In this document: positions 9,988 to 10,027 of the stretch, in pieces
Layout: each line of letters begins with the position of its first letter
How positions within the stretch are numbered: the first letter of the stretch is position 1
Source of the DNA: a virus
Taxonomy: Duplodnaviria > Heunggongvirae > Uroviricota > Caudoviricetes
Reading direction: 5' to 3' (one strand)
Length of the DNA: 10,690 nt
Virus record (IMG/VR): IMGVR_UViG_2740892230_000009
Coordinates: 1 to 10,690 of that record
Notes under the pieces: model-generated
Told to the model about the DNA's origin: nothing
The model's input: only the letters and a program-made list of their open reading frames with translations
Database searches by the model: none
Made by a program: the position numbers and the translations under genes

Positions 9988-10027
9988 ACCAATAGTTCTT
10001 GATAATGTCGAACTATTGGTTCATTAT
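9988..10027 (+). promoter_or_regulatory. Candidate PL promoter overlapped by an 11-bp inverted repeat (candidate OL)
   Basis: TTGATA (9999-10004), 17-bp spacer, CATTAT (10022-10027); inverted repeat ACCAATAGTTC (9988-9998) and GAACTATTGGT (10010-10020) spans the -35 and spacer. Confidence 0.4.

Follow-up and report, generated by a model that had tools for sequence, protein, structure and literature searches.

The immunity region of phage 933W provides the closest described precedent for the locus considered here. The PL/OL region of this phage has been dissected since 2004, reportedly by Tyler, Mills and Friedman and by Koudelka et al. in that year, and its arrangement OL2-PL-OL1 is published and already known. 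The region is of medical relevance, as in 933W-type prophages PL/OL controls the expression of N and thereby the lytic cascade from which Shiga toxin 2 is produced. The site recognized by the 933W repressor spans 15 bp and is rotationally symmetric about its central base pair (Bullwinkle et al., 2012; PMC3317979). Across the five natural 933W sites, positions 2-5 are conserved and 4-5 invariant, position 6 is T in 7/10 half-sites and C in 3/10, the half-site consensus places C at position 1 and A at position 3, and position 2 is G save for one OR2 half-site (PMC3317979). Binding of purified repressor has been reported for the five natural sites, OL1 and OL2 included, and S41, K42, and K46 have been named as the contact residues of 933W CI, the N-terminal domain of which was modeled on that of the 434 repressor, its closest structurally characterised homologue (PMC3317979). 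Reviews and later papers ascribe to 933W three right operators and only two left, with no OL3, and its CI is reported to show no cooperative binding to adjacent sites (PMC3317979 and later literature).

The DNA analysed here, hereafter the window, is a stretch of 10,690 nucleotides from a virus of the Caudoviricetes (IMG/VR record IMGVR_UViG_2740892230_000009). Between positions 6600 and 10300 its identity is 100% with phage TL-2011a, and 99.9% with 933W, Stx2 converting phage I, and numerous further Stx phages; against the 933W record AF125520, relative to which the window is inverted, about 0.1% of positions differ over 3.7 kb. Given this 99.9-100% identity to deposited phages, the window is evidently the immunity region of Stx phage 933W, and we consider it very probable that the portion examined below is the OL/PL region of a 933W-type lambdoid prophage, at which CI bound to OL2 and OL1 shuts PL. 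The annotation of AF125520, which itself marks no PL and no OL, was carried onto the window by coordinates. The 75-aa cro gene (6637-6864, minus strand), supported by its translation, Pfam HTH hits, and the AF125520 annotation, is followed by OR1 (6880-6894), OR2 (6904-6918), and OR3 (6936-6950), all three annotated in both AF125520 and GQ499363 and all matching the operator pattern introduced below, OR2 with one mismatch. The cI gene (6943-7650, plus strand) is supported by translation, Pfam, and the 933W annotation; its 235-aa product carries HTH_3 and Peptidase_S24 domains and, in translation, the recognition-helix residues S41, K42, and K46. The cognate repressor gene, annotated as cI in 933W, to which the region is 99.9% identical in DNA, is thereby present in cis with OL1 and OL2. 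According to the AF125520 annotation, cargo genes L0084, L0083, stk, and L0081 lie between cI and tM, the terminator of the cI-stk operon (9787-9808, plus strand, by terminator scan and annotation; about 9789-9810 by the coordinates carried over from AF125520), which sits about 180 nt 5' of OL2 and is conserved in lambda, there 3' of rexB. Alignments with HK106, lambda, and AU5Stx1 then delimit an immunity-specific block of about 9878-10035 containing OL2, PL, and OL1, beyond which are nutL, with its boxA/boxB region (10045-10111, plus strand; AF125520, by coordinates), and the 127-aa antitermination gene N (10277-10660, plus strand; ORF list, a Pfam N_peptide hit at 2e-15, and annotation). 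Pfam agrees with the gene calls for cI (HTH_3 and Peptidase_S24), stk (Pkinase), and N (N_peptide). The window also contains five runs of exactly 10 N (1038-1047, 1333-1342, 1652-1661, 2215-2224, and 6172-6181), representing masked or missing bases, one of which sits between cII and the replication genes.

Within the immunity-specific block, an earlier note had drawn attention to an 11-bp inverted repeat overlapping a candidate PL. The repeat is real: its arms, ACCAATAGTTC at 9988-9998 and GAACTATTGGT at 10010-10020, are 100% complementary and separated by 11 nt. It is the one perfect inverted repeat in the window with arms of at least 11 and a loop of at most 20, whereas 500 simulations under a first-order Markov model gave a mean of 0.078 such repeats, with any at all in 6% of them, and it is probably not a product of chance. 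The earlier note had further set the repeat apart from the OR palindromes, a distinction that several observations speak against. Lengthened by 2 bp, each arm becomes a palindrome in its own right, GTAC-CAATA-GTTC (9986-9998) and GAAC-TATTG-GTTC (10010-10022), sharing the half-sites of OR1 (GTAC-TTTCA-GTAC), OR3 (GTAC-TCATG-GTTC), and OR2 (GAAC-TGAAA-GTTT). The pattern GWAC-N5-GTWC occurs five times in the window where 0.37 occurrences are expected, a number reached by 0/200 shuffles; four of the five matches are OR1, OR3, and the two repeat arms, and OR2 is recovered with one mismatch. When a weight matrix built from OR1-3 alone was scanned across the whole 10.7-kb window, OL1 scored 12.68 (equal to OR3), OR2 12.2, and OL2 11.94, which places both OL sites within the window's best five, while the next non-operator site outside stk scored 8.1. 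Both arms have the form that defines a 933W-type CI operator (15 bp, with G(A/T)AC at positions 2-5 and 2'-5'), OL2 being CGTACCAATAGTTCT at 9985-9999 and OL1 CGAACTATTGGTTCA at 10009-10023, and the half-site statements of PMC3317979 given above are all reproduced by the ten half-sites of the window's five operators. Lastly, in the record of phage 27deltatox (GQ499363), whose immunity region is similar to that of 933W, identical DNA is annotated as 'OL2 repressor binding site' (window 9986-10001) and 'OL1 repressor binding site' (window 10008-10023), and the OR1-3 annotations of that record coincide with OR1-OR3 here. A search of the full-text literature with the operator sequences as strings found no paper. 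The earlier note had thus taken two adjacent, oppositely oriented operators for one long inverted repeat, and the anomaly that it perceived, namely an OL repeat unlike OR or else a second protein, vanishes when two 15-bp operators are recognized in the repeat. Its remark that GAACT also occurs in OR is correct as to presence, the motif being the left half of OR2, and off by one as to position (6905-6909, not 6904-6908).

The 11-bp repeat results from the near-identity of OL1 and OL2 combined with their opposite orientation, 12/15 bases being identical when one is reverse-complemented, and as part of the OL/PL reading as a whole it is almost certainly without a separate function. The two operators share even their central 5 bp (CAATA, in opposite orientation), which would be a coincidence of about 1 in 500 were these bases free. 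Repressor contacts alone do not account for the identical centres, which suggests either an inverted duplication or selection on the centre, and the shared CAATA is the sole residue of unexplained signal at this locus. It is conceivable that the complementarity of OL2 and OL1 over 11 bp is itself functional, either in that the two sites form one unit for a CI tetramer or for Cro, or in that a cruciform or hairpin tunes PL, but we regard this as very unlikely; the complementarity could alternatively be a relic of inverted duplication.

The promoter proposed in the earlier note, TTGATA (-35, 9999-10004) and CATTAT (-10, 10022-10027) separated by 17 nt, is present on the plus strand and agrees with the consensus at 9/12 positions; both hexamers are supported by the promoter scan and by conservation, and the -10, found with its 17-nt spacer, by alignment to lambda as well. 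The hexamer match alone is not significant, as 10 promoter-like sites were found in 6500-10690 and 10.6 were expected, and promoter-scan statistics cannot by themselves single out PL. The credibility of PL derives from position and homology and not from the hexamers, and on both grounds its assignment as the promoter region driving nutL and N is upheld. It lies on the same strand as N, about 250 nt 5' of that gene and just 5' of annotated nutL, in the position of PL in lambda and HK106. In HK106, which has an OL/PL sequence of the lambda type, PL is annotated at the equivalent position, and in alignment CATTAT falls within 1 nt of the lambda PL hexamer GATACT. Further, TCAGCAGGACGC (10036-10047, plus strand), a sequence with which we take the lambda PL transcript to begin at its 5' end, starts 8 nt past the -10, and it is precisely at 10036 that homology with lambda, HK106, AU5Stx1, and others sets in again. 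From this homology, transcription from PL probably starts at about 10033-10036. A literature search found no mapped 933W PL start, the 2004 primary papers being outside its reach. Sigma-70 hexamers with a spacer of 16-18 nt on the N strand 5' of nutL, together with positional homology to the mapped lambda PL, are the marks of a lambdoid PL, and each is found here. The operators are fitted closely to this promoter: OL2 has its last base in common with the -35, namely the first T of that hexamer, OL1 occupies the spacer and reaches over the initial 2 nt of the -10, and the centres of OL2 and OL1 (9992 and 10016) are 24 bp apart, which is the spacing of OL1-OL2 in lambda and of OR1-OR2 in the window.

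The flanks of this promoter display sharp mosaic boundaries, with 9790-9878, just 3' of the terminator of the cI operon, and the initial 12 nt of the PL transcript (10036-10047) common to lambda, HK106, and AU5Stx1, and with the approximately 155 bp between the shared flanks being immunity-specific; in the flank alignment, AU5Stx1 constitutes a third immunity type besides that of lambda and HK106. It appears from these alignments that the OL/PL cassette, cI, and cro are swapped together as one unit, the right junction lying close to the probable PL start. A 52-aa ORF with a TTG start (10016-10174, plus strand), annotated as 'hypothetical protein' in PV189402 and PV189403, overlaps OL1, the PL -10, and nutL; it has no Pfam match and is probably an annotation artefact.

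The early promoters of this phage differ in the placement of their operators: at the annotated PR (6896-6923), OR2 fills the spacer and OR1 covers +1, whereas at PL (9999-10027), OL1 lies in the spacer and OL2 upstream of the -35, with no site over +1. A promoter for N built exactly as PR is could be drawn by taking GATAAT at 10001-10006, a good -10 between the operators, so that OL2 would fall in the spacer and OL1 over +1. However, no acceptable -35 exists 15-18 nt upstream of GATAAT (AAATTC, AAAATT, and CAAAAT each match at 0-1 of 6 positions), it is absent from the output of the promoter scan, homology with PL leaders of the lambda type sets in after CATTAT and not after GATAAT, and a -35-like TTGACA stays between both sites in the distant relatives described below. 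This placement of the promoter is accordingly held to be highly improbable, and TTGATA-17-CATTAT is retained as PL.

As to the number of left operators, a third site was sought with the OR-only matrix in 9820-9984, where the best score is 4.2 versus at least 12 for real sites; this best candidate upstream of OL2 falls in DNA shared with lambda. The tripartite OL of the lambda type (OL1-OL2-OL3) is thus absent from the window. The record of Stx2 converting phage I (AP004402.1), 99.9% identical here, annotates, over window 8366-8446 and the OR region, a second 'maintenance promoter' and six 'putative operators' of 17 bp; the putative operators do not coincide with OR1-3 or OL1-2 of 933W, and the coding sequence of L0083 contains three of them. 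A 2023 paper refers to six operator sites of 'Stx2I', obtained from NCBI, and excluded 933W for having five (PMC10742460), although the immunity regions of 933W and Stx2I are the same. A sixth operator-like 15-mer, CGTACTAGATGTACT, is present inside stk at 9357-9371, about 630 bp upstream of OL2; it is an exact GWAC-N5-GTWC match and scores 11.7, as compared to 12.2 for OR2, and the literature counts five sites only. A single match per window could plausibly be due to chance, 0.37 being expected. As other prophages that share this cI are without stk, the site stands outside the core switch.

Conservation was considered in two sets of relatives. The first comprises seven genomic contexts retrieved by BLAST and unselected for the -35 motif, in which the cargo genes differ and N/nutL is of at least two unrelated types. 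No change touches OL1, the -35, or the -10 in any of the seven, while surrounding DNA drops to 82% identity, and the sole operator change concerns the weakly specified positions 6-7 of OL2 in Lambda_4B5. Where cI is annotated (Lambda_4B5, TW10598, and E92) it is 99-100% identical; in RMDEC465, insertion sequences occupy the upstream region, and Stx2_EH0505 is without annotation. The second set stems from a pattern scan of IMG/VR that returned 91 matches representing 32 distinct 45-mers, 23 of which are 933W-like, with a cI at least 97.8% identical wherever it is present on their contigs. As the scan pattern fixed GWAC/GTWC and TTGA-A, the conservation of those bases in this set holds by construction, and independent evidence is confined to the free positions, the -10, and the BLAST contexts. 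Among the 23 variants, changes cluster at operator positions 6-8 and in the inter-site spacer; the -10, which the pattern left free, is CATTAT in nearly all of them, and of the six bases of the -35, four of which were fixed by the search, the two free ones show no variation. What is conserved is the two individual operators and not the long repeat.

The same variants bear on the notion that the repeat acts as a nucleic-acid hairpin, whether as an RNA stem-loop or weak terminator on PRM/PRE read-through past tM or as a DNA cruciform modulating PL. A fold of the RNA of 9975-10035 yields -13.9 kcal/mol (z = -3.98 versus shuffles), and the stem is followed by TCATTATT, with 5 T in 8. However, the repeat lies upstream of the PL start and therefore outside the N mRNA, and the strong terminator tM stands 180 nt upstream. 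Across the 23 variants the 11-pair stem is 94.5% paired versus 93.9% in shuffles, and its number of pairs changed on both sides was reached by 397/500 shuffles; covariation score and number of cells with a double change exceed shuffles only mildly (26 and 37 of 500 shuffles). One double change occurs, C-G to U-A in three variants, and it is equally a shift by which both sites gain the consensus T at position 6, and 14 cells are unpaired without compensation. A stem kept by compensatory changes, as expected of a structured RNA or intrinsic terminator, was thus not observed, and an Rfam scan of the window matched no family. The decay of inter-arm complementarity among these variants, without convincing compensation, argues against hairpin function, which we find scarcely credible.

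Beyond the close relatives, six IMG/VR contigs (L034, L038, L059, L066, L078, and L035) encode a CI only 24-41% identical to that of 933W in which K42 and K46 of the recognition helix are kept. In five of the six, three GWAC-N5-GTWC sites are found between cro and cI, at spacings of 24 and 33 bp, along with two OL sites 24 bp apart; L035 has two OL sites and one further site near cI, and cro was not found on that contig. These distant relatives have TTGACA as the -35 between the two OL sites, their OL1 and OL2 are unrelated to each other at the central bases, and there is no long inverted repeat. On this comparative evidence the OL and OR sites are best regarded as one operator family, for which the distant loci supply independent support, and the 11-bp repeat as peculiar to the 933W allele. 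The five-operator layout (three OR and two OL) and the GWAC half-site code reach as far as these much more distant repressors, which points to a broad, largely uncharacterised repressor family with one DNA code. The suggestion of the earlier note that a second DNA-binding protein, distinct from CI, acts here, with the whole 33-bp inverted repeat as its one site and each arm as one half-site, could appeal to arms complementary over 11 bp, longer than operator half-sites need, but is barely tenable, as membership in the OR1-3 family of CI operators explains each arm completely, with GQ499363 annotating the arms accordingly (as OL2 and OL1), as variants with 98-100% identical CI lose the symmetry between the arms (TTATA versus TATTG in 11 contigs) and keep the dyad of each site, as in the distant relatives the two sites, again at a spacing of 24 bp, have unrelated centres, and as no module-specific extra regulator gene is present, the cargo between cI and OL varying between prophages.

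The reading of the locus as two CI operators flanking and overlapping PL allows a model of how the early-left operon is very probably controlled. In this model, the sigma-70 promoter TTGATA-17-CATTAT would start the leftward early transcript a few bases before TCAGCAGGACGC, and the transcript would pass nutL and then N. In the lysogen, two CI dimers would occupy the two 15-bp dyad-symmetric operators, with centres 24 bp apart, such that CI at OL1 blocks the -10 and spacer and CI at OL2 the -35, and RNA polymerase is excluded. The nutL-N segment and the downstream early-left genes, and hence the lytic cascade and Stx production, would thereby be kept off. Upon RecA-stimulated autocleavage, mediated by the Peptidase_S24 domain, CI would be lost and PL freed. 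By analogy with lambda, Cro may bind the same operators. The site sequences, the match to OR, the geometry, the identity to 933W, and the conservation were computed here, and CI binding and repression are taken from the literature.

Compared with the OL/PL region of 933W, the window is identical across OL2, PL, and OL1, with the same 15-bp operator, two left sites, and S41, K42, and K46 in the repressor, and there is no difference of substance. The lambda OL/PL occupies the same place between the terminator of the cI operon and nutL/N, has the same 24-bp spacing of OL1 and OL2 centres, and displays the same geometry, with OL2 touching the -35 and OL1 in the spacer and over the -10; the flanks and the start of the PL transcript are homologous. 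It differs in possessing three 17-bp operators of the TATCACCGC type and a repressor that is cooperative and loops, whereas the window has two 15-bp sites. Phage 434 has three left operators; its repressor, like 933W CI, reads short symmetric outer half-sites around a weakly specified centre, and the two systems differ in operator sequence, length, and contact residues. Finally, the six distant IMG/VR loci share with 933W the GWAC-N5-GTWC code and differ from it in a CI of 24-41% identity, in a -35 of TTGACA, and in having no long repeat.
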